IMG/VR virus record: IMGVR_UViG_3300031841_005832
Length of the DNA: 64,000 nt
Source of the DNA: an uncultured virus (IMG/VR IMGVR_UViG_3300031841_005832)
Taxonomy: Duplodnaviria > Heunggongvirae > Uroviricota > Caudoviricetes
Reading direction: 5' to 3' (one strand)
Positions 11,124 to 60,892 of the stretch are shown here, piece by piece. Positions within the stretch are counted from its first letter, which is position 1; each line of letters begins with the position of its first letter. The notes beneath the pieces were generated by a model. It was not told the DNA's origin and did not search any database. It saw only the letters and a program-made list of their open reading frames with translations. A program made the translations under genes and the position numbers.

Positions 11124-12458
11124 CTAGTACTTGTAATCTTCTGACTTGAATGGACCGGATATCTCCACCCCAATGTACTTCGCTTGCTCGGGAGACAGAG
11201 TTTCTACTTCTGCTCCAACGTGGTCTAAATGAAGCCTTGCGACTTCTTCGTCTAAATGCTTTGGAAGAACATAAACTTTGTTCTCATATTGATCGGATTT
11301 TTCCCATAACTCTATCTGTGCAAGCACTTGGTTTGTAAAAGAGTTAGACATGACAAAGCTTGGGTGGCCCGTTGCACAACCTAGATTAACAAGGCGACCT
11401 TCAGCAAGAAGAATAATGTTCTTCTGCTCTCTCTTCTCTAGACCCGTGATCTTTCTAAGGAAAGAAGTCTTGATCCTAAAGATATCTACCTGAGGTTTGA
11501 TGTTTTCTTTTTCGCAATTCTCTTCAAGCCAAGCAACATCTATCTCATTGTCGAAGTGCCCGATGTTGCAAACGATTGCGTTATGCTTCATCTTGTGAAA
11601 ATGGTTAGAATTAACAACAGAGAAGTTACCTGTCGCTGTTACAACAATGTCGGCTTCTTTAACAGCGTCTTCCATTTTCATAACTTGATAACCATCCATC
11701 GCTGCCTGTAGAGCACATATAGGATCGATCTCAGTTACTATGACTCTGCATCCTGCAGATGCCAGAGATGCGACTGAACCCTTTCCTACATCTCCGTATC
11801 CCGCAACGACCGCGACTTTTCCGGCCATCATGATATCTGTCGCTCTTCTTATTGCGTCGACGCAACTCTCCTTGCACCCATATTTGTTATCAAACTTACT
11901 TTTGGTTACAGAATCATTCACGTTTATACACGGAACTGGGAGCTGACCCTTAGCTTCGTATTCACGTAGTCTCAAAACCCCTGTGGTGGTCTCCTCTGTT
12001 ACACCTTTAATTTCGTCGTAAAGAGCTGGATGATTCTCAAGGACATACTTTGTAAGATCTCCCCCGTCGTCGAGAATCATATTAGGTCCTTTATCACCGA
12101 ACCAAAGTACTTCTTCTAGACATTCTTCATATTCTTCTTCAGTCATTCCTTTCCACGCGAAAACCGGGATGCCTTTTGAAGCTATGTAAGAAGCTGCGTG
12201 ATCCTGCGTTGAGAAAATGTTACAAGTCATCCACCTCACATTAGCACCCAGGTCAATTAGAGTATCTATTAGAACAGCCGTCTGAATTGTCATGTGGAGA
12301 CAACCGGCTATCCTGGCTCCCTTCAAGGGTTTCTTCTCAGCAAACTTTTCTCTAAGCGACATCAGGCCAGGCATTTCGTGTTCTGCAAGTCTGACTTCTT
12401 TCTCTCCCCACGCAGAGAGGGAGATATCAGCTATTTTAAAATCTTTCTTACCATTCAT
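11124..12458 (-). CDS. ahcY: S-adenosylhomocysteine hydrolase
   Basis: [45 protein letters not shown]. Confidence 0.97.
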
Positions 12459-12864
12459 CTTTTTGTATCATCCAGTCTTTAAACTCTTCTTTTCCGCCCC
12501 GTTCTGACCAGTCTGAATCTACACATAGACGAGAAGATATGCCCCCTCTAGGGTTTGTTAATAAAACAAGACGCAACCTTCTGGGTTTGTAAACCTCAAA
12601 CAAATCATCATAGATCACGTTGATTATTCTCTCGTAAGAATACAGCTGGTTCCTAAATTCGTAAATGTACTCTTTGAGAGATTTCAACTCTATGACTGAA
12701 TTATTCGGGTAGAAGGTTATGTAAAGACTTGCAAAGTCGGGCTTGTCTTTGTCCCCCATGAAAGTGAGCTCAGGTATCTTTGTCTTTATTTCGTACGCCT
12801 CTCCACTAGGATTGGGAATTGACTTAAGTGAACTTCTGTTCTTTGTCCAGTCTCTCTTAGCCAT
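12448..12864 (-). CDS. QueF-like T-fold protein lacking the catalytic Cys
   Basis: [12 protein letters not shown] QueF motif, [13 protein letters not shown] where QueF has PEFTxLCP. Confidence 0.8.
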
Positions 12865-13475: not shown

Positions 13476-13566
13476 TGGCGGAGAGGGAGGGATTCGAACC
13501 CCCGGTGGTTATTAGCCACGCTGCTTTTCAAGAGCAGTGCAATAAGCCAGACTCTGCCACCTCTCC
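13476..13566 (-). tRNA. tRNA-Ser (anticodon UGA)
   Basis: GGAGAGG/CCTCTCC acceptor stem, G discriminator plus encoded CCA, CTGCT-CTTGAAA-AGCAG anticodon arm, long variable arm, GTTCGAATC T-loop. Confidence 0.95.
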
Positions 13567-13572
13567 TAAGTC

Positions 13573-13851
13573 TTATTTTTCAGGGACATGTTTCTTAAAA
13601 TAAAGAATGTGATTTTTCCCACCAGGAGCACTAACTTCGAACTTATAGTCGTATTCTTCTTCAGTAGAGATCTCATAAAGCTCTTCTGAGTCTTCTGGCT
13701 TTCCGATTTTCTTTGACACGTGATCCAGGTGATTTACCCTGTATTTCTGTTCAGACTTTCTGTAAAGGCCTGTCTTGTCGTCTCTTGAAAAAGAAACTGT
13801 GGTTCCTTCCGACTTGTGAACACCTTTTTTTCTAGCGATAGGTTTTGCCAC
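13573..13851 (-). CDS. Hypothetical protein
   Basis: GTG start with AGGAG; lies between tmRNA and tRNA. Confidence 0.6.
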   Translation of the reverse strand: MAKPIARKKGVHKSEGTTVSFSRDDKTGLYRKSEQKYRVNHLDHVSKKIGKPEDSEELYEISTEEEYDYKFEVSAPGGKNHILYFKKHVPEK

Positions 13852-13869
13852 CTAGAATCTCCTTTGAAA

Positions 13870-14150
13870 AAGAAGCGGCTTATTGGGTAACAAGGAAAGC
13901 CGCAAACCCCGCAAAATTATGCCGCTAAGGCAAAATCCTGAAGCTCAACATCATCGTTGGCATTTATGTTTTTAAGCGTTTTGACAGTGACCATCGCTTC
14001 CCACTGCCTTGCACGTCTTGTCTTCCAAACCTAGTCGAAACCGTGCGCCCCCGTAAAAAATGGTGGAGGCGGAGGGAATCGAACCCTCGTCCTAAATTCT
14101 TCTAACAACCCGTCATTCACAAGGTTGTCCGGTTTTGAATAGATCCGGCA
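13870..14150 (-). ncRNA. ssrA: Circularly permuted (two-piece) tmRNA
   Basis: T-arm plus CGCCTCC-A-CCA (ends at 14061) precedes GGGGGCG (starts at 14052), separated by an 8-nt spacer; G3:U70 pair; PK1; tag ANDDVELQDFALAA* at 13961-13917; outer ends approximate. Confidence 0.93.
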
Positions 14151-14160
14151 ACTATTTTAC

Positions 14161-14364
14161 TTACTTCTTATTGACAAAAGCCAGAAGCTTTTCAGCCTCA
14201 GTAAGAACATCCTCTGTCGTAAAAGGCTGAATCGCTTGACGTGTCCCTTCCGGCTTCATATGTTCGTTCTCAAATTGTCGCTGAACTCTAGACTCAACAA
14301 TTCCAATTGCCATTCCCAATAGTTCTGTTCGCAGTTCGTAGCCGCTCTTTGTAGAATTACCCAT
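14161..14364 (-). CDS. Small phage hypothetical protein
   Basis: SGYELRTELLGMA...PFTTEDVLTEAEKLLAFV; AGGAG SD. Confidence 0.7.
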   Translation of the reverse strand: MGNSTKSGYELRTELLGMAIGIVESRVQRQFENEHMKPEGTRQAIQPFTTEDVLTEAEKLLAFVNKK

Positions 14365-14411
14365 GATTATCTCCTTTCTGTGTGTATGTGTGTTAACACA
14401 TGGGCTATCAA

Positions 14412-14446
14412 AAAAGGCATACAACAACCTCTGATGTATGCCTTTT
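14412..14446. terminator. Hairpin with A/T tails (bidirectional intrinsic-terminator-like)
   Basis: aaaaggcataca ... tgtatgcctttt perfect 12-bp inverted repeat. Confidence 0.65.
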
Positions 14447-14489
14447 GTAATATATTAAGGTGGGAATGTGTGTATAAAGGAAAGTTATT

Positions 14490-15308
14490 TTATTCTTCGT
14501 CAGATTCTTTGCGCCACTTCTCGAGTTTCTTGACTCTCTTTTCGAGTCTTTCACCGTCGAAATCAGCGTTGATTGAAACCTGGTTCTCGAGCGTTCCGAT
14601 TCTAGACTTGACTTCAGCAACCTCTGCTGTGAGTTGTGCGTGAACTGCCTGACACTGACCCGGAGATTTATCCTGCCCTTTTGATTCGAGCTTGATCTTC
14701 GCCATCTTTTCTTCGTGCCGCTGTTCTGCCCACTGCTTATAAAACTTCATTGCTGCGCCGCCACCGAACACTGCGAGTGCCGCGAGGATGATTGTAACTG
14801 TGGGATCTGATGCGTTGTCCTTTGCGAGTTTCATAAGTTCCGATGATACCGCATCAGGTGTGGGTTGTTGTACAGTAGCGATTAGTTCCTGGTCTTTTTT
14901 CGCCATGCTTGCGCCTCCTTCTATCTGTTCTTCGTTTTTTTCTTCGGTGATAGAAGCTGTTTCTTCTTCCACCGGTTTTTCTGCCACTTCCGTAAGTATC
15001 GGTTCGATCTTCTGAATCTCATCTTGTTTTTTCGGGTTTGATACTCTTCCCGGCTTTTGATCCTTGATTTCTCGGGCAGATTCTTCACGGACAGATTCTC
15101 GAGGTTTCTCTCTGATTTCCGCAACGGGTGGGGGAGTTTCTTGGGTTTTCTTAATATCTTGAGGTTCGTATGGGATTCTGAGAACAGTTCCCACTTCCAG
15201 GTCACAGTTAACGGTCCAATCATCTACCCAAGAATTTCCCTTGGAATCTAGAAGTTTCTCCTCTATGAGAATGGATACATCACCTTTTTGTAACTTGCAT
15301 TTTGACAT
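14490..15308 (-). CDS. Membrane-anchored coiled-coil protein
   Basis: Single TM (VTIILAALAVFGGGAAM) followed by coiled coil. Confidence 0.65.
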   Translation of the reverse strand: MSKCKLQKGDVSILIEEKLLDSKGNSWVDDWTVNCDLEVGTVLRIPYEPQDIKKTQETPPPVAEIREKPRESVREESAREIKDQKPGRVSNPKKQDEIQKIEPILTEVAEKPVEEETASITEEKNEEQIEGGASMAKKDQELIATVQQPTPDAVSSELMKLAKDNASDPTVTIILAALAVFGGGAAMKFYKQWAEQRHEEKMAKIKLESKGQDKSPGQCQAVHAQLTAEVAEVKSRIGTLENQVSINADFDGERLEKRVKKLEKWRKESDEE

Positions 15309-19120: not shown

Positions 19121-19552
19121 TTAACCGATGCTGACTAGCTCGATTTCAAAATTAAGGTTCTTTCCGGCGAGTGGGTGGTTGAAGTCAATGGTAGCTGTGG
19201 TGTCTGTTAAACCTACAACCTTTCCCATCATTTGCTGGCCTAGTTCGTTTTGGCCCATGATTGTGACTCCTTCTGTTAGAGTCATTTCTGGAGGAAACAT
19301 ATCCTTTCCAAATTCTTGAACCGCTTCCTGAACAGGTTCTCCATACGCTTGATCAGGTGTCAAGTGAACAGTCTTTGTTTCTCCCGTAGACATTCCTACG
19401 AGTGCAGATTCAAAACCAGGGACTACTTGTCCAGACCCAACCTGAAAAGACAGTGTCTCCCCTCTATCGTGCGAACTATCAAATTTTGTTCCGTCGTCAA
19501 ACGTTCCTGTGTAGTGGACGTTGACTGTGTTGCCGGATTCTACTTTACTCAT
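19121..19552 (-). CDS. FKBP-type peptidyl-prolyl isomerase (SlyD/FkpB-like)
   Basis: VHYTG..DDGTKFDSS, AYG, DFNHPLAGKNLNF. Confidence 0.95.
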   Translation of the reverse strand: MSKVESGNTVNVHYTGTFDDGTKFDSSHDRGETLSFQVGSGQVVPGFESALVGMSTGETKTVHLTPDQAYGEPVQEAVQEFGKDMFPPEMTLTEGVTIMGQNELGQQMMGKVVGLTDTTATIDFNHPLAGKNLNFEIELVSIG

Positions 19553-19624: not shown

Positions 19625-20224
19625 TTATACTGTCCAGGTTCCTGCTTCTAGTCCCACACCTTTCCATCCAGGTCTATCTGTCCGAGAGTAAAGATCTAGA
19701 TATGGACCCTTGCTTCGACTCTCTACATAGCGATAGAACTCCTCTGGCTTTCTAGAATGCTGCCTTCTTTCCGCTATAATAAAATCCTTTGAAGATGTAA
19801 ATCCTTTACCCATAGGGACAGATTCGAGGTCTGAATTGCCCCTATAGCGGACTCTTTTACCCTTGCCCTTCTGGTACTTTACGCCGAAGATGCACATTTC
19901 TGTGTATCTCATTCCGTAGGGTGTGGGACTTCCCACATTGCTTTTAACCCAGGGTATTAGAGTAATCGGTGTATAACCGAGAGACTCACAAACCTCAAGA
20001 GCAGGTAATATTCCTTGATTAGCGCCCGCGGTAAAAGAATTTACTGCCCACATATAGAGGTGTGATTCAGGAGCAACTCCATACTGGTTAAACCAATCTC
20101 TTATGGTCACTATAATCTCTTCTTTTGTCTGGACTGCGTAATGTGTTGACATTTGCAGAGAGGAATGACCGACTCCTCCTGTCGACTTTTTCCACGGTGG
20201 ATCTATTACTATTGTCTTGTACAT
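19625..20224 (-). CDS. MT-A70 family adenine methyltransferase
   Basis: IDPPW, HSRKPEEFY, LDLYSR. Confidence 0.9.
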   Translation of the reverse strand: MYKTIVIDPPWKKSTGGVGHSSLQMSTHYAVQTKEEIIVTIRDWFNQYGVAPESHLYMWAVNSFTAGANQGILPALEVCESLGYTPITLIPWVKSNVGSPTPYGMRYTEMCIFGVKYQKGKGKRVRYRGNSDLESVPMGKGFTSSKDFIIAERRQHSRKPEEFYRYVESRSKGPYLDLYSRTDRPGWKGVGLEAGTWTV

Positions 20225-21207
20225 TAAATCTCGCTTGGGCTTCTAGAAAATATTACATGGGAATTAGGGATGTGTGAACTGAGCCAGTGCTCTAAATCTT
20301 CTGACGACTCAAACTCGTAAAGACTCTCATTGTCCCGAACTCTCCAGACACCTATCTCTTCTAGTATGTCTGCTTTGTTGAAGACGACCTTTGTTGCACT
20401 ATTGATATAAACTGATCTTATGAGGAGCTGAATGTCTAGCCAATTTACTTGCCTAGGCCTTCCTGTTGTAGCACCGTACTCTTTTCCAACCTCTCTAATT
20501 TCTTCAAAAACTTCATCATCCCCGGAAAAGCTTTTTGCACCTACATACGTCTCATAAACTTTTGCAACTCCCCACACATCTCGGATAGCAGAATAAGGAA
20601 CACCAGAGGCAACTACTCCTGCAACCGTGCAATGAGACGACGTCACGTAAGGATAGTCTCCCCAGTCTACGTCTAGTCCAAAACCCTGCGCGCCTTCGCA
20701 AAGGACTTCTACCCCTGATTCACAGTGAAGCTCTTCAAAAACATCAACCATGAATTCGTCAAGCTCAGGAACTTCTTTTGCCAAGACTCCTCTTCTTGCA
20801 TATTTGTCTCTGTAAGCAGGGCCATTTCCAGTTCTAGTAGTTCCTATCTTTTCTTCTTTAGAGTCTTCAGCCACGTGAAAGTCAGTTATGACGTGAGCAT
20901 TCTCTGCAATCATGAGATAGTCTGAGACGTTTATTCCGCTTCTTTCCAGCTCTTCTATTTCTTCATAAAGCTTTTCGACATTAATAACACAGCCAGGCCC
21001 TATGATGGAAGGAATTCCATAAAACACACCACACGGGATGTGATGGGTAACAAACTTTTTTCCTTCATGATAGATGGTATGTCCTGCATTGCACCCTCCG
21101 TTAAACCTGAGGACGTGAGTATAATTTCCATTCCTCGCTAGCTGGTGCGAAACCTTCCCTTTTCCTTCGTCTCCGTACTGAAGACCTACGACAACGTCAG
21201 CGATCAT
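20224..21207 (-). CDS. purA: Adenylosuccinate synthetase (short form)
   Basis: QYGDEGKG, NAGHT, EGAQG, YPYVTSS, GATTGRPR. Confidence 0.95.
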   Translation of the reverse strand: MIADVVVGLQYGDEGKGKVSHQLARNGNYTHVLRFNGGCNAGHTIYHEGKKFVTHHIPCGVFYGIPSIIGPGCVINVEKLYEEIEELERSGINVSDYLMIAENAHVITDFHVAEDSKEEKIGTTRTGNGPAYRDKYARRGVLAKEVPELDEFMVDVFEELHCESGVEVLCEGAQGFGLDVDWGDYPYVTSSHCTVAGVVASGVPYSAIRDVWGVAKVYETYVGAKSFSGDDEVFEEIREVGKEYGATTGRPRQVNWLDIQLLIRSVYINSATKVVFNKADILEEIGVWRVRDNESLYEFESSEDLEHWLSSHIPNSHVIFSRSPSEI

Positions 21208-24573: not shown

Positions 24574-24909
24574 TCACTGAGATAAGACATTGTCTGCCAG
24601 ATCTCTGAGCTTCTGAGCTGGATTAGCCGGAGCTCCGACATGCTGCTCCACTACGTTACCTTCGCTAAAAGTAAAAATCGCAGGGATTCCTTTGATGCCA
24701 AGGGTCTTAGCCACCTCGCCATTTTCATCGACGTTTACTTTAACGACCTTTAGACGCCCAGAATATTCATCTGAGAGCTTTTCGACAAAAGGTCCGATTG
24801 TTTTACAAGGGCCGCACCACGGGGCCCAGAAATCAACCAGGACGGGCGTCTTGCTCTGGAGAACCTCTTCTTCAAAATTATCATCCGTTGCATCAATGTG
24901 TTGACTCAT
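24574..24909 (-). CDS. trxA: Thioredoxin
   Basis: VLVDFWAPWCGPCK; start reassigned to MSQHID. Confidence 0.95.
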   Translation of the reverse strand: MSQHIDATDDNFEEEVLQSKTPVLVDFWAPWCGPCKTIGPFVEKLSDEYSGRLKVVKVNVDENGEVAKTLGIKGIPAIFTFSEGNVVEQHVGAPANPAQKLRDLADNVLSQ

Positions 24910-25063
24910 CTTCTTCATACTCCTCGTATATTTCTCTAATGTCTTCTCTGCATGAACCACAGTGTTGCATCATTCCTTCACAATAGAGATCCTCTAGTCT
25001 GTTTTCCTCTATCGCTAGACGTATCTCTTCTTCTGAGATGCCGGAACAGTTACAAACAATCAT
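24893..25063 (-). CDS. Bfd-like [2Fe-2S] ferredoxin (56 aa), not in ORF track
   Basis: Hand translation MIVCNCSGISEEEIRLAIEE...HCGSCREDIRE; CxC...CGSC pattern. Confidence 0.8.
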   Translation of the reverse strand: MIVCNCSGISEEEIRLAIEENRLEDLYCEGMMQHCGSCREDIREIYEEYEEDESTH

Positions 25064-29751: not shown

Positions 29752-30261
29752 TTATCTTACAAACGGAACATAAGTAGGTGGGAGATCAGGAATTTCTTTT
29801 GGAATCATTCCACATTCTTTTGGTAGTTTGCTGCCTTTTTTCTGATTGCACTTTCGACACGCGATAACAACGTTGTTCCACGTGTGTTTTCCACCTTTTG
29901 ACTTCGGAATGACGTGGTCTATGGTGCAGTCCTTGATAGTAAGTTTCTTATCACAGTACTGACACTGGCCTTTGTCTCTTGCCCAGATTGTTTTCTTCGA
30001 AGGGCTAGCTCTTCGATTGATGTTTTTGATTCGGCCGGCAATAACACCTGTTAAGAACCTGACTATCGTAGGAAACTCTATTTTTCCTGTTCCGGTTCCG
30101 ATATAAAGAGTTTCATGAGTTTCGACTACTTCAGCACGGCCGCAAAAAACTGCAGTGATAGCTCGCTTCCAATTTGTCTTAAAAAGTGGTTCGTATCCAG
30201 TGCTTAGCACAAGAACTTGTTGAGAATTGAGTTCAGATAAACTAGATCCACTTTTTTTCAT
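29752..30261 (-). CDS. HNH endonuclease
   Basis: RD...CQYC...TIDHVIPKSKGG..TWNNVVIACRKCNQKK. Confidence 0.93.
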   Translation of the reverse strand: MKKSGSSLSELNSQQVLVLSTGYEPLFKTNWKRAITAVFCGRAEVVETHETLYIGTGTGKIEFPTIVRFLTGVIAGRIKNINRRASPSKKTIWARDKGQCQYCDKKLTIKDCTIDHVIPKSKGGKHTWNNVVIACRKCNQKKGSKLPKECGMIPKEIPDLPPTYVPFVR

Positions 30262-30282
30262 AAAACCTCTTTCTTTCAAGGC

Positions 30283-31301: not shown

Positions 31302-31615
31302 GAATAAAAACCAGCGTATCGATGAATTATCTACTCTTTGGTATAATGCTTCTGAGTGTTCTCGACGCTGTGTTTACTCTTTCCTGGATTCGGTCGGGAA
31401 TAGCAACAGAGGCGAATCCAATACTTGACTATCTCCTGTCATGGGGTGAAGAATATTTTTTTGCAGGCAAAGTTTTCTTAACTTTTTCAGGGTGTGCTAT
31501 ATTGAAATTCTTGTCGGACAACCCTTTATCGAGGAAAGCCGCGATAAGTCTTACGGGATTTTATGGGTGTTTAACTCTATACCACGTTATCGGAGCCTAT
31601 CTTGCTGTCTTCTAA
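31298..31615 (+). CDS. DUF5658-like membrane protein
   Basis: LDAVFTL...EANP...F..K. Confidence 0.75.
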   Translation: MRIKTSVSMNYLLFGIMLLSVLDAVFTLSWIRSGIATEANPILDYLLSWGEEYFFAGKVFLTFSGCAILKFLSDNPLSRKAAISLTGFYGCLTLYHVIGAYLAVF

Positions 31616-31843
31616 GATAGCCTCTTTTTCTTTTTTTCTCTTTCTTTTTATTTGATATTCTCTAGAAAGAGCCGACCCTTTGGTTGGGTGGGTTTCATGC
31701 CAGACAAATTTCACGGGAAGTCTAGACCTTGTGTACTTTGAGCCCTTTCCAGAATTGTGGACCTTTTCTCTTTTTTCTAGATTGTTTGTTATACCGCAGT
31801 ACAGAGAGTCATCAGAACATCGGGCTAAATAAACATACCACAT
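31577..31843 (-). CDS. GIY-YIG nuclease (UPF0213-like)
   Basis: WYVY...CSDDSLYCGIT...HNSGKGSKYTRSRLPV. Confidence 0.92.
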   Translation of the reverse strand: MWYVYLARCSDDSLYCGITNNLEKREKVHNSGKGSKYTRSRLPVKFVWHETHPTKGSALSREYQIKRKRKKEKEAILEDSKIGSDNVV

Positions 31844-34880: not shown

Positions 34881-35313
34881 TTACCTCACTCTCTCTAGAG
34901 TAGAAATTGGAACTTTTTTGTATACTTGATTCATGAATAAAAGATCAACAACAAGAACTTCGGATGAAAGAAGCGTTCTGTTCAAGAGATTTCCGTCGAT
35001 ATCTTCTAAGCTATTTAAATCTTTTGTGGTAAAAACAGTACAATAAGTTTCCGTTATGACAAGCCCAGTTGCATCACTAAGTCCCATAACTTTTACGAGA
35101 TCACCTTTTTTGATCGCCACTCTGCACCTCGTAACAGATAAGATACTTTTTCCCGGGCTCTAGCTTTGAATCTTGATGAACGGGTCTGTAGCCTAAGCTT
35201 TGTGGGTCCCATGTTAGGACCTTGTCAGGCTTTCCGGTCAAGCTGGAAATAGAACCTACAGTCTTTCCTATCAAATAGCCACAGAAAAATCCGACAAAGA
35301 TCTCAAACACCAT
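34881..35313 (-). CDS. Two small genes (34881-35120 SH3-like; 35101-35313 membrane-anchored)
   Basis: KKGDLVKV; N-terminal TM. Confidence 0.55.
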
Positions 35314-35890
35314 ACAAATTTCTCACAGTTGTTTCTAACCCAGGGTTAACTTTCTTAGCTAACGGGACAATCTCTTTTCTGACAAGATTTCTAGCGTAAC
35401 GAGTGGTTGAATTTGAAGGATCTTCGATGTGATCAAACTTATCGAATCGATGCAAGTCACCTTTTTTCGATAAGAGAAAGGGCCTGATTACGTTTGATTC
35501 TGGATTCTCGATCGGCATAAGATTCGGATTTCCTCTAAAAGAGCTGAACAGCCACCATTCAGTTGCATCCGAAAGATGATGTGCAAGAACGACAGGGTCG
35601 GCAAACTTTCCAAAGAAGTCGTAACGCTCTCGATGCCAATATGATTCTAAAGACTCTTTCTTCTTTCTTTTAGAGTGAGGCATGCTAATGTAATAAGTCA
35701 GTCCTAGTCTCTCAGCAGTGCTTATAACAAAGTCTTCTGCTTCTTTTCCGTGTGCAGTCTCGTGATTGAAGTAGGCGATTTCTACGCTTCTTCTGCCTCT
35801 CAAGAGAAACTCAAGGGCTGACATAGAATCTCGCCCTCCTGAACACGCAAGAACTACTCTTTCCGGGATTTTACAAGCAAGTCTTATCAT
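35303..35890 (-). CDS. tilS: tRNA(Ile)-lysidine synthetase, PP-loop domain only
   Basis: SGGRDSM, RY.FF, LAHHLSD..E, IRPFL, EDPSN...YARN; start reassigned to MIRLAC. Confidence 0.88.
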   Translation of the reverse strand: MIRLACKIPERVVLACSGGRDSMSALEFLLRGRRSVEIAYFNHETAHGKEAEDFVISTAERLGLTYYISMPHSKRKKKESLESYWHRERYDFFGKFADPVVLAHHLSDATEWWLFSSFRGNPNLMPIENPESNVIRPFLLSKKGDLHRFDKFDHIEDPSNSTTRYARNLVRKEIVPLAKKVNPGLETTVRNLYGV

Positions 35891-36711
35891 CGTTTTAAGA
35901 TATCCTCTACATTGACGTCCCGAACTTCTCCATCGATTAGACACTCATACTGGACCTTTCCTCGCTTGGAAACTTTTGGTTCTCCGATAATCATACAAAG
36001 TTTCTTCCCCTCGGAAAAAGAGCGTCTGTAGCGCATGTCGCCCGGCGTGTGCCTTGGGTTCAACATTTCTTTTAGGACGCCCTTGCAGGAAGCAGCTGCT
36101 TTTTCCACAAGCCACTTTGACATCTCAGGTTCAGGCCCCATCTCAAGTCCATCAGCCTTTGCTCGTTGCCAGCTAAGCCAGTCAGAAACCTTGGCAATTG
36201 CCTTTACCTGCCCTTGACGATGTGACCAGTACCAACTGTCTTTTCCTCTTGCAGCAGCCTCAGCAATTACAAGAATCTTTACATCCTCGTCAGATGGGAC
36301 GAACTTTCCATTGACTCGAATATCCTCAGCTTTCTCCAAAAGAATGTTCATAAAGTTTGTTTGACGTTCTGAGAGATCGTATCCTTTGGCAAGTTTCCAT
36401 CGAAAAGACTGGAGTGCTTCTCGATGAGCTCCCATCCCTTCGAGCTCAATTGCTGCGTCAATCGCAGCAACTTTTTCAGGGTTTTTAGGCTCAGGAATCG
36501 TAGGAGACCCCTGTTCGATCAAGGAGTCTAGATATCTCTTCTGCCCTGATGTTATATCTCTTCGGGAAAGTCGAGCAATCATGTCGCAGATAAACCGGTA
36601 ACTTTTACTGTAAGTGTGTCCGGCTTGCTCATAAAGAGATTTCAATTCTTGAGCCTGAGATAGTCGAAGATCTTTAGACTTACGAGTGATTTTAGTTTTT
36701 TGATTTTGCAT
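35887..36711 (-). CDS. Hypothetical early protein
   Basis: Strong SD and promoter; SH3-like C-terminus. Confidence 0.7.
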   Translation of the reverse strand: MQNQKTKITRKSKDLRLSQAQELKSLYEQAGHTYSKSYRFICDMIARLSRRDITSGQKRYLDSLIEQGSPTIPEPKNPEKVAAIDAAIELEGMGAHREALQSFRWKLAKGYDLSERQTNFMNILLEKAEDIRVNGKFVPSDEDVKILVIAEAAARGKDSWYWSHRQGQVKAIAKVSDWLSWQRAKADGLEMGPEPEMSKWLVEKAAASCKGVLKEMLNPRHTPGDMRYRRSFSEGKKLCMIIGEPKVSKRGKVQYECLIDGEVRDVNVEDILKR

Positions 36712-45186: not shown

Positions 45187-45786
45187 TTATTTCTTACGGC
45201 GTTTACGAGTTTTTCTTTTTGGTGTGGAGTTTCGGGTTCTTTCCGCTTTGAGAATCGCTTGTTTCTTAAGCGAGATTTTTCTCAATTTACGGGTAACCAT
45301 GTTTCTAGTTGCGCCCTCAAGCCTGTGAATAAACAGCTTGCCGAGGAGGTGATCAGTTTCGTGTTGAACCGAAGCGGCCTCAGAACCTTCTAGAACTGCT
45401 TCTAAGGGATCGCCGGCGGTGTTTCTATAGGTTAACCTTATTTTACCGTACCTGTTCACACTGGCTGTGATTTCGTCCACGGATAAACACGCTTCTTCCC
45501 ATCTGTAATCTTTATCTGAGAGGTGTTCGATCTCAGGATTTCCGAAGAAAACCACATCGGGTACGTTAGGATCGACCGGAAGCGAGGGAACGTAATCGGC
45601 TGTTAGGACACAACCTGCAAGCGTTTCACCAATCTGAGTTCCGGCCAATCCCACACCATGGTTTACCTTCATGGTATCACGCAAATCAACGGCCAGTTGG
45701 ACCACAGTTTCGTCGAAAGATTCGATGGGTTCTGAGGACCTGAGGAGGGATGGGTTCGGCCATTTTACCAATCTGCGTGCAACCAT
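45187..45786 (-). CDS. def: Peptide deformylase
   Basis: GVGLAGTQIG, EACLS, QHETDHL.G. Confidence 0.93.
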   Translation of the reverse strand: MVARRLVKWPNPSLLRSSEPIESFDETVVQLAVDLRDTMKVNHGVGLAGTQIGETLAGCVLTADYVPSLPVDPNVPDVVFFGNPEIEHLSDKDYRWEEACLSVDEITASVNRYGKIRLTYRNTAGDPLEAVLEGSEAASVQHETDHLLGKLFIHRLEGATRNMVTRKLRKISLKKQAILKAERTRNSTPKRKTRKRRKK

Positions 45787-46939: not shown

Positions 46940-47656
46940 TTATTTTACCTCCTCGTTTAACTCTTCTGTTAGACCAAACCTAAGTCGTAAGACTGTTTCC
47001 TCCCTTGGAGAGAGATTACCTAGCGCTGATCTGATTGCCTTTTCAAGCTTTTGATGATCTAGAATTTCATCGACTTTATCATTACTTCTGTCCACGAGAA
47101 CTTCGTGCATAGTTCTTCCTGATTCGTCTGAACTATAGACCGAAGCATCAAACGCTACAGGAGTAGCTGCGCTCTTTATAAGAGCCTGCAGAGTTTCTGG
47201 ACTCGTACCAAGGAGTTCTGCGACTTCTTTCTGGGAAGGCTCGGTTCCAAATTCTTTCCTGTACTCTTCGATAACTTCTTTCATCTTGTACAGTGTTCCT
47301 CTGGCATAAGAAGGAAGCTTTATGGCCCCTGACTGAGCTGCTACGTGTTGACGGACTGCCTGCTTTATCCACCAGCAAGCGTATGTAGAGAACTTAAATC
47401 CCTTTCGCCAGTCAAAACGATCAACTGCCTTGATAAGACCCAAAGAGGATTCTTGAATTAGATCTTCAAGATCAACACCCTTCTTTGAATAATTCTTAGC
47501 AATACTTATTGCAAGCCTTATGTTAGCTCTTATCATCTTGTCTCGAGCTTTTTGGTCTCCAAGTTCAATCCTCTTCGAAAGTTCAACTTCTTCCTCTCGA
47601 GTCAGAAGATCTGTTTGACCAACAGACTTGAAAAAACTTTGCATATTGCCGGCCAT
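46940..47656 (-). CDS. Sigma-70 family factor (regions 1.2-4.1; region 4.2 missing)
   Basis: LLTREEEVEL, NIRLAISIAK, DLIQE..LGLIKAVDRFD..KGFKFSTYACWWIKQA, ends LSPREETVLRLRFGL+9 aa. Confidence 0.93.
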   Translation of the reverse strand: MAGNMQSFFKSVGQTDLLTREEEVELSKRIELGDQKARDKMIRANIRLAISIAKNYSKKGVDLEDLIQESSLGLIKAVDRFDWRKGFKFSTYACWWIKQAVRQHVAAQSGAIKLPSYARGTLYKMKEVIEEYRKEFGTEPSQKEVAELLGTSPETLQALIKSAATPVAFDASVYSSDESGRTMHEVLVDRSNDKVDEILDHQKLEKAIRSALGNLSPREETVLRLRFGLTEELNEEVK

Positions 47657-47976: not shown

Positions 47977-49602
47977 TTAAAGTTCCTCTATTAAGCCTAA
48001 ACCTTCTCCTCCTTCCTTTTCAGTTATTGAAATTGCGCACCCAATCATAAGGATGTTGCAAACGACTGATGTTGCGTGCATAAGCGAAGAAACGACAACA
48101 TCGTGAGGATCAATAATTTTCATTTCAAGCATGTCCCCGTATCTGGAGTTTCTTGCATCGTAGCCGTAATTAAGCTTATTTGTCCTTGTCAGCTTTCGTA
48201 TAACTATTTCGGGAACCTCGTCAGTGTTCTTAACAATCTGAGCTATTGGGACAGTACACGATTTCACTAGAGCATCAAAGCCGGCGTTAAAAGAACTGTT
48301 TCCGGAGTTACCTCTTTTAACTTTTTTAGAGGCTTGTAAAAGAGCGGTTCCGCCTCCAGGTTGTATTCCTGATCTTTTTGCAGATCTAGCTGAGCACAAA
48401 GCATCGTCAACTCTGTCTCTTCTTTCGAACATTTCACCTTCTGTACTTCCGCCTACTCTGATAATTGCGATACCTTCTGACAATCTTCTTATTCGTCTAT
48501 TTAAAAGACCTACCTCAGAATCATCTAGCCCGGGGGCTCTTGCAGACTCAGAAAGACTTTCAGCTCGGCTTTTTACTGCATCTCTATTGCCTTTAGTCCC
48601 TATCAAGAGAGTTCCGTACTTGTCGACAATGATCTTGTCAGCGCTTCCAAGAAATTCTGAAAGATCGTCTGTCTTTTTTACTTCGTGCTCTGAAGTTATT
48701 ACAGAGCCTCCTGTAACAAGAGCAAGGTCGTCGAGGGCTTGTGATCTTGCATTTCCAAACTCAGGAGCTTTTATAGCACATACACTTAATGTACCCTTCA
48801 TCTTGTTTACAACGAGCGTCTGAAGTGCTTCGTTTGCTATGTCATTAGCTACTATCAATAGAGACCTATTAGAAGAAGCAGAGTATTCAAGAAACGGAAG
48901 AATACTTTGGGCATTAGTAAGAGTCTGGTTGCACATCAAGACAAGTGCCTTTTCAAGCTCGGCTTGTCCCTTGTTTTTATCAGTAGCAAAATAGGGAGAA
49001 AGATATCCTCTGTCAATAACTGTTCCCTCAACAATGTCTAGCTGCGTGTCGAAACCCTTTGCGTTTTCTACTGTTATAGGGCCATCAGGGCCAACTCTTT
49101 CGATCGCCTCAGCTATTAACTCTCCGACAAAATCCTCTCCGTTAGCAGAGATGGTAGCCACAGATACAAGCTGCTCTTCAGTATCAAGATCAATTCTAGA
49201 CTCTTCTAAGGCTTCTAAAACCTGATTGCAAGCCTCTTCTATGCCAGCGGTTACCTGACGTGCATCATGACCGGTCTCAAGGAGTCTGTTTCCTTCATCA
49301 AGGAGGTGAGAAGCTAAAACAGTCGAAGTCGTAGTTCCATCGCCTGCGACGTCTGCTGAGCGCTGTGCAGCCTCTTTTACAATCTGGCACCCTAGATTTT
49401 CAAACGGGTCTTTAAGATTTACAGCATTTGCGACAGTAACGCCGTCCTTCGTTAAGTGAGGGCGCATCCCTTCCTTGATAATCGCTACATTCTTTCCTTT
49501 TGGACCAAGAGTTACACTAACAGCATCAGAGAGTTTGTGAACTCCTTTTACTATCTTTTCTCTTGCGTCTGATTGGAATTTTAATTCTGAAACCTGAGAC
49601 AT
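47977..49602 (-). CDS. groEL: Chaperonin GroEL (phage type)
   Basis: TLGPKG, TKDGVTVA, GDGTTT, RVDDAL, GGG; no GGM tail. Confidence 0.95.
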   Translation of the reverse strand: MSQVSELKFQSDAREKIVKGVHKLSDAVSVTLGPKGKNVAIIKEGMRPHLTKDGVTVANAVNLKDPFENLGCQIVKEAAQRSADVAGDGTTTSTVLASHLLDEGNRLLETGHDARQVTAGIEEACNQVLEALEESRIDLDTEEQLVSVATISANGEDFVGELIAEAIERVGPDGPITVENAKGFDTQLDIVEGTVIDRGYLSPYFATDKNKGQAELEKALVLMCNQTLTNAQSILPFLEYSASSNRSLLIVANDIANEALQTLVVNKMKGTLSVCAIKAPEFGNARSQALDDLALVTGGSVITSEHEVKKTDDLSEFLGSADKIIVDKYGTLLIGTKGNRDAVKSRAESLSESARAPGLDDSEVGLLNRRIRRLSEGIAIIRVGGSTEGEMFERRDRVDDALCSARSAKRSGIQPGGGTALLQASKKVKRGNSGNSSFNAGFDALVKSCTVPIAQIVKNTDEVPEIVIRKLTRTNKLNYGYDARNSRYGDMLEMKIIDPHDVVVSSLMHATSVVCNILMIGCAISITEKEGGEGLGLIEEL

Positions 49603-49604
49603 TT

Positions 49605-49796
49605 TCACCCCTTTAATATCTGCTTTCTCGACTCTGTGAGAATCGCAGAAGTATTGCCTAGAATTCTTCTGTTTCCAGTCAAGGCATTTTCTGCTATAAC
49701 CAAGTCACCAGATCTAAAGGCTATTTCATTTGCTTCTATTTTTCCTTCTAAGCGAAGAGCAGAAAGCTGATCTTCTGTTAGTGCAACCTTATCCAT
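49605..49796 (-). CDS. Small hypothetical protein
   Basis: Coupled ORF. Confidence 0.6.
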   Translation of the reverse strand: MDKVALTEDQLSALRLEGKIEANEIAFRSGDLVIAENALTGNRRILGNTSAILTESRKQILKG

Positions 49797-55346: not shown

Positions 55347-56551
55347 TTAAATATTCTTTCTGTAGGCTTTTAGCGCCCTTTCAAAATCGTAACCTTCTCC
55401 CACTATAATAGGGCTGTCTTCAGTTCCTTTCCCAGAAGCCTGTTTTGACGACTTTAGATCAGATCTTGAATCAGGAGATTTTTCTCCCTTTGTACTTACT
55501 CCAATGTCCTTTGGCTCTAGGGCTTCGGCGCCCTTTTCAACTCCAGTGAGTATTTGAGCTATCCCAGTCATGAAAGCTAGCAAAGTCTGCCTCTCAGATG
55601 TACTGAGTCCTTCAAAATACTGTTCAAAAGATTCTTTGACGTCCGGGTCTTTTAGGGATTTCCCGCCTCTGAGTGCGTTGAGCTTATCAATAACAGATCC
55701 TAGAGTGGGAGCTTTTAGAACCTTTTCTTTAGGGACTTTTAACTTCGGAGAATCCGCTGTACCTTTTCCGCCTGTTCGGTCTTCTCTTTTTTTATCCTCA
55801 GAGTCATCCTCTTCTTTTTCGGCTTCATCCTGAGTTCTTGGGTTCTCATCTGAGTCTGAGACGATGCCTCTATCTTTTACAGATTTCGCCATTCGCTCTT
55901 GTCTCTTTTTTTCCTCGTCTCCATCAGAAGAGAGCTTTGTCTCAAGAACAGCTTTTACAGATCGACTAATCTCTCTGGTTATCAAGCTGTTTATATCATT
56001 TATTGACATTTTTCTTCCCATGAGTAATTAAGTTTTGAGGAAGTTCCCTATAGAGCTTAGCAAGCTTTCTTGCATAGTTGTTTTCCTCTTGCTCTTGCAA
56101 CCTTTCAAGCTCTTCAGTCCTAAGTCTATCTCTTTCTTCGATGTCTTTCATGAATTTTTCGAAGTCAAGCTTATACTGTTTCATTAAATATTCTCCGGGT
56201 CTTTATTGTTAAAAGATTGTTTTCCCATGAAACTATCTCATTGGGTATCTGAATGAAATGTTCTCCTTCTATTTCTGCTTCAACGGAGTCTGATCTTAGT
56301 AGATCTCTTGTTGAAAGCGAAGGAACCTCGAGAGTAAAAGAAAAAACTTTGTCCTCTATCTCTATCTTCTTCAAAGAAAAGATGTAACTCTTTCCTGAAA
56401 TTGTTAGGTGATTTTCTTCGGAAGGTTTATCTTCAGAGATATCAGCAGATGAATGCTCGTCTAGACTTGATAAAACCCCTTCCAGGGATTTGCTGATTAT
56501 CACATTCTCAGGGTTTCCTAAAACCCTTTCAAACTCTTTATCTGCAGTCAA
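55347..56551 (-). CDS. Three hypothetical genes (55347-~56009, 55996-56184, 56171-56551)
   Basis: Overlapping co-oriented ORFs in the putative late cluster. Confidence 0.55.
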
Positions 56552-56909
56552 AGTCTAAAACGTCCCTATAAATTCTATCGATCTGAACTGTGTATTCTTT
56601 GTCAAGATCAGTTATTCTGTTAATGTCTTTCGTGTAAATCTCTATGTTAACCTCTAGATGATCGATTCTCATCTGACCGTGATGATTAACATGATCTTCG
56701 TGCATCATGACTTCGGAAACAAAGCTGGCTAACCTCTTTCGAGAGACGAACTTAAATGTTTTCGAAAATCTTTCCGGATCTGTGTGTACTTCCCACGAGA
56801 ACTTTTTTACTTGAACCGGTTGTAAACTAGTGGGTATACCAAAAGGATCACGTCCAATTTCGGTGTTCTCAAAATATTCGTTCAAGAGTCTTTTTAAACT
56901 AGTTTTCAT
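56538..56909 (-). CDS. Pterin-4a-carbinolamine dehydratase-like protein with leader
   Basis: W...KTFKF...FV......NHH...V.I..YTKD...ITDLD. Confidence 0.7.
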   Translation of the reverse strand: MKTSLKRLLNEYFENTEIGRDPFGIPTSLQPVQVKKFSWEVHTDPERFSKTFKFVSRKRLASFVSEVMMHEDHVNHHGQMRIDHLEVNIEIYTKDINRITDLDKEYTVQIDRIYRDVLDFDCR

Positions 56910-60211: not shown

Positions 60212-60892
60212 CTATGCAGTCAGAGTCTTTGAAGATTTTTCAATTCTCTTAATTCTCTTTTCAATAACTTCCCAGTCAAACTCTTTCATCATTCTTAAGA
60301 CGTACGATCTTCTGTCGTCTAGGTAGTCTCTGTAGTAGGCGCCTTCTGCGACGTCAAGAGATATTACAGGAAGGAAACCAATGGGAACGTTTAAAGACTC
60401 AGTGTCAACAACTATGTTCATATACCTTTTAAGAAAAGTAGAATAGCCAGTGACAGCATATCCGTCTCTTGACGACATTGCGCAAGCTATGAAATCTTTT
60501 TGCCAAGCATCAAAACCCCCGAAGTCTCTTTCGAGTCTAAGAAAACTCATCATATCCATAGTCAGAGAACTCTTTAGATCTGAGATGTTTTCAAAATGTA
60601 AAGCTCTTAAAAAAGCAGCATTCATACAGTGAGACTCGTCTATTTTTAATCCCCTGAATTTGCTTTTCTTATCACTCGCAGCATCTCTATCTACAGTATC
60701 TAGCTGCGCACTGATTTCATTTAACTGATCTACGAATTTCTCGAAGTCTTTCTGTCTAGCCACTTTTACCTTCTCTGACAGTGACTCAGTATTTAGACTG
60801 AATTTTTTTGCCTGAGTTACGTAAGCTTCCTCTAGAACTCCAGAAAGAGATTCATTGATGACTCTTTTTAAATCTTTCTTTATGTCAGACAT
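60212..60892 (-). CDS. Fe/Mn superoxide dismutase-fold protein lacking metal ligands, with leader
   Basis: LERDFGGFDAWQKDF; LDVAEGAYY where SODs have DxWEHAYY. Confidence 0.75.
   Translation of the reverse strand: MSDIKKDLKRVINESLSGVLEEAYVTQAKKFSLNTESLSEKVKVARQKDFEKFVDQLNEISAQLDTVDRDAASDKKSKFRGLKIDESHCMNAAFLRALHFENISDLKSSLTMDMMSFLRLERDFGGFDAWQKDFIACAMSSRDGYAVTGYSTFLKRYMNIVVDTESLNVPIGFLPVISLDVAEGAYYRDYLDDRRSYVLRMMKEFDWEVIEKRIKRIEKSSKTLTA

Follow-up and report, generated by a model that had tools for sequence, protein, structure and literature searches.

A circularly permuted two-piece tmRNA gene of an uncultured phage and its one-piece relatives in related phages

Results

A permuted tmRNA gene on the minus strand

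The window analysed here, a 64-kb stretch of the uncultured Caudoviricetes virus IMGVR_UViG_3300031841_005832 (IMG/VR), carries a transfer-messenger RNA (tmRNA) gene whose two halves are circularly permuted, so that the acceptor half comes before the tag-coding half, with an 8-nucleotide (nt) spacer between them. Judged by its structure and conservation, the two-piece tmRNA gene is real, borne by a phage and under selection. The interpretation we prefer, and consider probable though far from secure, is that it is a working gene of a large uncultured marine phage, which acquired its form by a permutation of its own inside a family of one-piece phage tmRNAs. All coordinates are positions in the window, and the gene and its parts are on the minus strand.

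ARAGORN called a permuted tmRNA at 13826-14153 (−), with the tag ANDDVELQDFALAA. The Rfam model RF04321 (tmRNA_permuted) matched at 13917-14124 with 117.5 bits (cut-off 47, E 2.8e-22). RF01850 (beta_tmRNA) matched over the full model at 13865-14174 with 94.1 bits (cut-off 84); it was the best model of its clan, and zero non-standard pairs were flagged in the alignment. A sequence-only reading of the window had proposed a circularly permuted, phage-borne tmRNA, and the minus-strand sequence, ARAGORN and both covariance models bear this out. The tmRNA-type T-arm/acceptor end is single in the 64 kb, the other match being a tRNA-Ser, and the gene is therefore truly permuted and not the seam of two tandem full copies.

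The whole gene (13866-14152, from ARAGORN and Rfam) consists of a 5' hairpin, the acceptor half, the 8-nt spacer, the coding half, a 3' hairpin and a U-rich tail. The leader hairpin (GUUGCCGG/CCGGACAAC, 14124-14152) lies immediately upstream of the P2 strand and is 100% conserved in the related contig L139 (see below). The region of the P2 3' strand (14112-14126) falls within a 16-nt signature, AACCTTGTGAATGACG, also written AACCTTGTGAAYGACG, and includes the P2b strand CCUUGU (14124-14119). The P2a 3' strand AAUUUAG (14092-14098), recognized by pairing and family comparison, is the partner of 14034-14028. Next come the T arm GAGGG-UUCGAUU-CCCUC (14072-14088, sequence and Rfam) and the acceptor end (14061-14071), made up of the acceptor 3' strand CGCCUCC (14071-14065), the discriminator A14064 and an encoded CCA (14063-14061). 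The spacer TTTTTTAC occupies 14053-14060 and is the same in L139.

The coding half opens with the acceptor 5' strand GGGGGCG (G1 = 14052, G3 = 14050) and the GGUUUCGAC motif (14034-14052, sequence and Rfam), with GGTTTCGAC at 14042-14034. Seven base pairs make up the acceptor stem, in which G3 (14050) pairs with U70 (14067). The P2 5' strands (14007-14034, sequence and family comparison) are CUAGGUU (14034-14028) and GCAAGG (14012-14007), giving the pairings CTAGGTT/AATTTAG and GCAAGG/CCTTGT. Pseudoknot 1 (PK1, 13974-14006) has the stems S1, CAGUG 14006-14002/CACUG 13989-13985, and S2, AAGCG 13999-13995/CGCUU 13978-13974. The tag reading frame called by ARAGORN (GCC...GCA UAA, 13917-13961) encodes ANDDVELQDFALAA*. 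It is followed by a post-tag element (13866-13910) with GGGG (13910-13907), a hairpin GCGGCU 13903-13898/AGCCGC 13880-13875 with the loop UUCCUUGUUACCCAAUA, and then UUCUUUUUC. From its sequence, this element is probably a second pseudoknot formed by GGGG/CCUU pairing. Its hairpin directly abuts UUCUUUUUC and therefore probably doubles as the transcript terminator.

Authenticity of the junction

Fourteen public sequencing runs, labelled as seawater, marine or biofilm metagenomes, contained at least half of the sampled words; the window may itself derive from one of these runs. Contigs from one of these DNA runs and from three RNA runs were mapped. A DNA contig of 1834 nt from run X3, which belongs to another study, matched 13543-14600 without difference and crossed the junction. 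Two contigs from RNA libraries of two studies, which are assembled contigs and not raw reads, also crossed the spacer: one from X16 (229 nt, exact, 13899-14127) and one from X18 (13907-14145, 4 mismatches). L139, a Joint Genome Institute metagenome contig, has the permuted gene with an identical 8-nt spacer, followed by a tRNA-Ser. The test for mis-assembly at 14053-14060 thus came out negative, as the X3 contig and L139 both show the same junction.

That the permuted order is an assembly artefact is hardly conceivable. The window derives from assembled sequence, its T-arm region is common to many organisms, and there is a depth jump at 14056-14096. Against this stand the exact X3 contig, the RNA-library contigs across the junction, and L139, which comes from a different collection and keeps an identical junction between flanks that have diverged by 13%.

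The three RNA runs had zero contig cover on 13564-13891 and 14179-14465, and X17 had one contig at 14490-14600; these gaps imply neither silent flanks nor a discrete RNA. The ends of the RNA-library contigs (13899, 13907, 13911, 14127 and 14145) are at most a weak hint. The start of an X17 contig at 14061 was rejected as a processing site, being a break where k-mers are common to many organisms.

Conservation between the window and L139

Over 6 kb, L139 and the window agreed in 86.9% of columns (5263/6057). Identity rose to 98.6% (289/293) over the tmRNA gene (13860-14152), and was 83.5% and 72.2% in the adjacent open reading frames (ORFs) and 89.1% in the tRNA-Ser. The four differences within the gene affect a PK1 loop, the stretch before the resume codon, codon 9 of the tag (D to G) and the loop of the 3' hairpin. 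The tag of L139 is ANDDVELQGFALAA, and both tags have an intact frame with the canonical ALAA end. As the gene is far better conserved than its flanks, and the changes are unpaired or in the tag, the pattern is that of a functional RNA. On this comparison, the gene is under purifying selection.

A family of one-piece tmRNAs in related phages

Scanning for the start of the tag gave three viral contigs (121-160 kb) with standard tmRNAs and the tag ANDDVEIFED[F/Y]ALAA. Their first ~170 nt align to the coding half of the window gene, and their 3' halves share with it the strand AACCTTGTGAA[C/T]GACG. A scan of viral contigs with the 16-mer signature returned 58 loci, 33 of them standard one-piece tmRNAs and none permuted, according to ARAGORN. 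The family members come from IMG/VR loci L192-L249 plus L172/L175/L182 (RF00023). In all 33 genes the motif is at the expected place, with 0-1 mismatch, and the tags are of the types ANNDVELDDFALAA, ANDDVEIFEDFALAA, ANDNVEFDYALAA and ANDDVENFEDFALAA. From the 25 loci without an ARAGORN call, 8 were tmRNA 3' parts (partial or cut by the contig end), after which no 5' half was found, and 17 were chance matches in coding DNA. RF00023 matched at full length, with 107-126 bits, in 8/8 one-piece loci tested. The best match to the 16-nt signature had 6-9 mismatches in 104 other permuted genes (49 viral, 55 Rhodocyclaceae-type).

The pairings of the window gene are kept throughout the 35 family members (the window gene, L139 and the 33 one-piece genes). 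All 7/7 acceptor pairs are canonical in 35/35, as is the G3:U70 pair. In the T arm 5/5 pairs are canonical in 35/35, with compensatory changes at two pairs. The P2a pairs are kept in 32-35/35, with compensatory changes, and P2b is canonical in 35/35. PK1 is kept in 32-35/35 (S1) and 30-35/35 (S2), and many of its pairs changed on both sides, for instance from A-U to G-C or from C-G to U-A. The helices that join the two RNAs of the window gene are thus those that fold the one-piece RNAs. The sequence-only reading had described a 7-bp acceptor stem with G3:U70 and intact P2, PK1 and tag; each of these could be read directly in the sequence, and this family-wide retention supports the helices.

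The carriers of the one-piece genes are, on gene content, phages related to the window phage, the nearest being the contigs of L209, L230, L227 and L231. Homologues of 16 window genes (28-68% amino acid identity) lie within 6 kb of one-piece tmRNA genes, at 29 loci in total. They include a QueF-like protein (68%), an M15 peptidase (63%), FKBP (54%) and a PurZ-like protein (53-59%, five loci), and further a PP-loop ATPase, UvdE and a PALP enzyme.

The relatives also point to where the gene was opened. The post-tag loop UUCCUUGUUACCCAAUA matches CCTTGTTAACCAAA of the family, with the motif CCTT[G/A/C]TTA[A/C]CCAA or variants. The GGGG-plus-hairpin element is also present in Dechloromonas/Azonexus and viral permuted genes, and the stems differ in sequence (GCAGC/GCTGC, GCCAT/ATGGC, TCCAGAT/ATCTGGA, GCGGCT/AGCCGC). 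In one-piece relatives such as L209 and L232, the last hairpin stands directly before (A)ACCTTGTG, and by position the 5' leader hairpin of the window gene appears homologous to it. The window gene keeps this last hairpin and lacks the intervening part, which puts the permutation break somewhere after the post-tag hairpin and before the last one. In the RF00023 alignment of L209, the PK2-PK4 region is too uncertain to call the one-piece linker ancestral.

Two further observations concern the one-piece genes. RF04321 scores standard one-piece genes slightly above its cut-off of 47 (L232, 6130-6347, 52.6 bits; L209, 6179-6360, 54.3 bits), and a match to it is thus not enough to tell a permuted gene from a standard one. 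L195 and L228, and similarly L230 and L241, have no encoded CCA; a conserved stretch, aatccacccaaaactttgggcgtttcc, with a small hairpin follows their tmRNA 3' end.

Phylogeny and origin of the permutation

The coding half (176 nt) was not used in choosing the 16-mer family. Its identity to the window gene was highest in the one-piece family (n=33, median 0.71, max 0.76), followed by the viral permuted genes (n=49, median 0.66, max 0.71) and the Rhodocyclaceae-type genes (n=53, median 0.65, max 0.69). The best 17 rows after L139 were all one-piece genes (17/17).

Maximum likelihood (ML) trees were calculated with IQ-TREE from 115 rows: the window gene, L139, 33 one-piece, 39 viral permuted, 12 Rhodocyclaceae-type and 29 standard Burkholderiales genes. 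Duplicates, Rhodocyclaceae-type rows past the first 12 unique ones, short-segment rows and L136 were left out. In the tree from both halves, the window gene and L139 grouped with all 33 one-piece genes (support 99/98), inside a 19-row subclade (95/99) and therein a 6-row subclade (94/98). With the 16 motif columns removed, the corresponding values were 98/95, 99/98 and 99/98. The coding half placed both genes inside the 19-row subclade with 98/98 and inside the 6-row subclade with 97/95.

These trees give good support for the window gene and the one-piece family being mutual closest relatives. Nesting of the window gene in the family, and with it the direction of the permutation, is favoured, not proven. 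Since the closest relatives are one-piece genes of related phages, we consider it fairly likely that the window gene represents a permutation event of its own within the one-piece phage family. The permuted order was probably not inherited from the alphaproteobacterial, betaproteobacterial or cyanobacterial permuted lineages. An independent, phage-specific permutation had been suggested by the sequence-only reading from a resemblance to the Myxococcus tag. That tag plays no part in the present argument; the suggestion itself is favoured by the one-piece relatives and the trees.

The spacer fits such an origin. TTTTTTAC resembles the T-run that follows the CCA in relatives (tttttttac in L246, ttttac in L232/L236, tttttttt in L227), and its end resembles the 'ac' preceding G1 in many one-piece relatives. 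The spacer thus looks like a 3' flank joined to a 5' flank, the residue expected from tandem duplication and deletion of the outer halves.

Spacer lengths and known permuted lineages

When viral contigs were scanned with a sequence pattern, 49 loci with spacers of 4-30 nt were obtained, and ARAGORN called 48 of these permuted. Spacers had 4 nt in 8 loci, 5 nt in 8 and 7 nt in 3, and 19/49 were ≤7 nt. A scan of bacteria, with one genome per species and a spacer limit of 12 nt, returned 56 loci, with spacers of 5 nt in 53 and 4 nt in 3. Titles of 50/56 bacterial loci named Accumulibacter, Rhodocyclaceae/Rhodocyclales, Dechloromonas, Azonexus, Azonexaceae or Sulfuritalea, and three (Accumulibacter, Dechloromonas, Azonexus) had 222-246 bits on beta_tmRNA. 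The description of the 8-nt spacer as minimal does not hold, with 4-5 nt in 56/56 bacterial loci (within the 12-nt limit) and 16/49 viral loci. Given bacterial spacers of 4-5 nt and viral ones of 4-30 nt, the 28-nt spacer of the Rfam beta consensus may reflect phage or metagenome seeds.

In a sample of 401 Burkholderiales genomes, which includes three unpublished ones (G382, G029, G208), the beta-type pattern with a spacer of 6-36 nt was found in none (0/401). BLASTN of the window gene against the same sample gave T arm and acceptor matches only, and 29 of the 30 fetched loci were standard tmRNAs. In the both-halves tree, the Rhodocyclaceae-type genes grouped with phage tmRNAs, permuted and one-piece, and not with standard Burkholderiales tmRNAs, on a weak branch (57/82).

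Two other lineages were considered for the window gene. All 25 alphaproteobacterial genes compared (114-316 bits on RF01849) have a reduced T arm and AGGATCGAC. The alpha type was ruled out, as GGTTCGA.TCC and GG.TTCGAC are found in 0/25 alpha genes and the window gene is without alpha features. The cyanobacterial type (RF01851) was set aside on the Rfam clan ranking, in which RF01850 came first. A classifier based on whole-gene nhmmer with beta versus alpha profiles was discarded: all targets and the beta training set had been selected with one exact pattern, and even the two Rfam-alpha loci scored as 'beta'.

Discussion

A proposed two-piece RNA

The order of elements in the transcript is directly given by the sequence. 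One transcript would carry the 5' hairpin, the P2 3' strand, the T arm, the acceptor 3' strand with CCA, UUUUUUAC and the acceptor 5' strand. It would continue with the P2 5' strand, PK1, the tag frame and the second pseudoknot hairpin, the U-rich tail ending the RNA. By analogy with tRNA and tmRNA biology, RNase P would cleave before G14052 (14053|14052), and 3' exonucleases would trim the 8-nt trailer to CCA14061. The 7-bp acceptor stem and P2 would hold the two RNAs together. Host AlaRS would charge the RNA via G3:U70 and A73, and EF-Tu and SmpB of the host, the latter being assumed, would deliver it to stalled ribosomes. There ANDDVELQDFALAA would be appended and mark the protein for proteolysis. 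The gene order most likely arose inside the one-piece phage family by its own circular permutation, for example through a tandem duplication whose outer halves were later lost.

A minimum free energy (MFE) cofold of the two pieces recovered the 7 intermolecular acceptor pairs and the T arm, with a dimer gain of -20.3 kcal/mol, versus -11.0 ± 3.6 in shuffles. The cofold also paired the conserved 5' leader (14130-14152) with 14020-14043, the GGUUUCGAC/P2 region, instead of P2. This pairing may be an alternative fold specific to the precursor, or a prediction artefact.

Alternative explanations

Several results weigh against a working gene with a permutation of its own. On the side of function, cleavage into two RNAs, charging and tagging are predictions from tRNA and tmRNA biology, and SmpB was not found among the ~90 window ORFs scanned. 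The RNA-library contigs span the spacer, which is consistent with a precursor or with DNA. P2 was not recovered by the MFE cofold and therefore rests on covariation. The gene could accordingly be a decaying relic, or its RNA could merely titrate host SmpB without tagging, as was proposed for the tag-less tmRNA of mycobacteriophage DS6A by Hudson et al. (2014, PMC4131195), which provides a published precedent for decoy-type phage tmRNAs. We consider this improbable: the gene is 98.6% conserved compared with 86.9% for its surroundings, the tag frame with its ALAA end is intact in both the window and L139, and PK1 and the resume region are retained.

On the side of origin, the window gene may have come from the known betaproteobacterial-type permuted lineage (RF01850), being a functional two-piece tmRNA with no separate permutation event. 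The one-piece phage family would then be a re-permuted offshoot, or merely look close; re-permutation has a precedent in Jakoba libera mitochondria, according to the 2025 tmRNA database article (PMC11915505). The window gene passes the beta_tmRNA cut-off (94.1 vs 84) at full length, and it shares with Dechloromonas/Azonexus GGUUUCGAC, the canonical T arm and the post-tag GGGG-plus-loop motif. The RF01850 lineage is widespread on viral contigs, with 11/20 viral permuted loci tested reaching this model, three of them with 5-7 nt spacers. Both comparison sets were chosen by exact motifs shared with the window gene, and the tree has no root and a poorly supported backbone (57/82). The approximately unbiased (AU) test did not clearly reject a single clade of all permuted genes (p 0.126 for the coding half, and 0.049), nor a grouping with 27 beta-like viral and 12 Rhodocyclaceae-type genes (p 0.070), a group named post hoc from the tree. 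A clade of the one-piece family without the window gene was not rejected either (p 0.22), so that the window gene may be sister to the family and not nested in it, in which case the change could have run in either direction. Remnants of a duplicated copy were not found in the flanks (3 short matches vs 41 in 20 shuffles).

Nevertheless, we regard descent from the beta lineage as rather unlikely, though as an alternative to be taken seriously. Core beta members have 222-246 bits on RF01850, compared with 94 for the window gene, and the clade of the window gene with the one-piece genes is supported by 98-99/95-98. Grouping with the Rhodocyclaceae-type genes alone had an AU p of 0.035. The 16-nt P2 signature is missing from all 104 other permuted genes compared. 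Beta acceptor pieces begin at the P2 strand, whereas the window gene retains the upstream hairpin of one-piece genes. In a parsimony reading of the both-halves tree, at least 5 reversions to the one-piece form would be needed under the ML topology.

Genome context

We read the window, from its gene content, as part of a large phage genome. Nearly all ORFs are on one strand, and many are without a PHROGs or Pfam family. Recognized genes were a T4-type RNA ligase, an M15 endolysin, an SLT transglycosylase, an ATP-dependent DNA ligase, a flap endonuclease and UvdE, as well as a PurZ-like adenylosuccinate synthetase. Among GenBank phages neither a close phage nor a full-length relative of the tmRNA was found, and they did not point to a host, as the best protein matches had 24-42% identity and came from unrelated hosts. 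Two window proteins used as queries found no relatives in viral contigs.

A tRNA-Ser(UGA) (13476-13566, −; ARAGORN, 53 bits in Rfam) lies 300 nt downstream of the tmRNA gene on the same strand, and is syntenic in L139. The region of the tmRNA gene is rich in genes for protein synthesis and folding, such as deformylase, GroEL, FKBP and tRNA-Ser. The helper set around the tmRNA and the tRNA-Ser is unusually full, with an FKBP isomerase (19121-19552), thioredoxin (24574-24960), peptide deformylase (45187-45786), a sigma-70-like factor (46940-47656), GroEL (47977-49608) and an Fe/Mn superoxide dismutase-like protein (60212-60892), all on the minus strand.

The PurZ-like gene (phrog_1211, PF00709, 327 amino acids) adjoins an MT-A70-type methyltransferase (19625-21207, −), a possible sign of 2-aminoadenine (Z) DNA in this phage. 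Genes for an S-adenosylhomocysteine hydrolase, a QueF-like protein that also matches a 'GTP cyclohydrolase' PHROG, a PP-loop ATPase and a pterin dehydratase (11124-12864, 35303-35944, 56538-56909, −) could belong to a pathway that makes deazaguanine or another modified base. Two endonuclease genes, of the HNH and GIY-YIG types (29752-30279, −; 31577-31843, −), probably encode homing endonucleases.

Significance

Two-piece tmRNAs are a textbook case of RNA gene permutation, ascribed so far to three bacterial lineages and mitochondria. As a kind, the window gene is ordinary, its presence on a phage is not new, and its spacer is not minimal. Its value lies in the closest relatives: a permuted gene next to one-piece genes in related phages forms a natural before-and-after pair. 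The pair shows which part is dispensable, namely what lies beyond the post-tag hairpin up to the last one, and also a possible break site and how short a newborn spacer can be. The duplication-deletion model thereby becomes testable. Further, the Rfam label 'beta_tmRNA' on phage genes need not imply a betaproteobacterial origin or host. More speculatively, and with little confidence, one may suppose that tmRNA permutation recurs in phages, that the window gene and L139 are a young case with the spacer as duplication scar, and that the phage pool is the source of bacterial two-piece genes such as those of the Rhodocyclaceae type.

Comparison with known tmRNAs

Published ideas on the role of phage tmRNAs include ribosome rescue sustained during host RNA decay, and protein recycling. 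The sequence-only reading likewise suggested that the window gene could maintain ribosome rescue in infected cells. Work by Keiler et al. in 2000 is said to have described the two-piece tmRNA of Caulobacter and other Alphaproteobacteria, and the original description of the betaproteobacterial type reportedly goes back to Sharkady and Williams in 2004.

For phages, Al-Shayeb et al. (2020, PMC7162821) report tmRNAs and SmpB in huge phages, and the 2025 tmRNA database (PMC11915505), which comprises 97,179 sequences, counts 79 phage sequences. The novelty of a phage-encoded two-piece tmRNA, implied by the sequence-only reading, had been pre-empted by Buchholz et al. (2022, PMC9004378), who describe two-piece tmRNAs in the OM43 phage Melnitz, in pelagimyophages and in other aquatic phages. 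Of 133 unique phage tmRNAs, they list 53 as two-piece by ARAGORN, 50 of them aquatic. No description of an independent phage tmRNA permutation was found in the literature searched, subscription papers being outside its scope.

The window gene resembles the Melnitz type, for which a role in sustaining or redirecting trans-translation during infection is proposed (PMC9004378), in being a permuted ssrA gene of a large marine phage, with an entire tag frame and without an integrase context. The Melnitz gene differs in being reported as alphaproteobacterial in type and in carrying a glutamine riboswitch. The window gene has a canonical T arm and GGUUUCGAC, both lacking from the 25 alpha-type genes compared, and no riboswitch in the window was matched by Rfam. 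According to the same source, phage genes share the three bacterial lineages, whereas the nearest relatives of the window gene are one-piece phage genes.

With the Caulobacter/alpha type (RF01849), the window gene has in common the principle of a permuted gene whose transcript would be processed by tRNA enzymes into two base-paired RNAs. The alpha type differs in its reduced T arm (GGACCCGGGGGCGGTACCCGG type), in AGGATCGAC and in spacers of ~5-75 nt (25 genes). The beta type (RF01850; Dechloromonas, Accumulibacter, Azonexus) shares the permuted order, canonical T arm, GGUUUCGAC, PK1, a short spacer, an AND..FALAA-type tag, and the post-tag GGGG and hairpin with a CCUU.UUA.CCAA loop. In contrast to it, the window gene has 94 bits (vs 222-246), a spacer of 8 nt (vs 4-5), a tag four residues longer, another P2 sequence, an extra 5' hairpin, no second GC-rich terminal hairpin and a different place in the tree. 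The one-piece family shares with the window gene the 16-nt P2 strand, the GCAAGG/CCUUGU helix, PK1, the resume region, a tag type such as ANNDVELDDFALAA, the post-tag pseudoknot hairpin, the hairpin before the P2 strand and neighbouring genes. It differs in a further 50-150 nt of structured RNA, absent from the window gene, that separate the post-tag hairpin from the last one, and in the ordinary gene order of all 33 called members, whereas the window gene and L139 are permuted.

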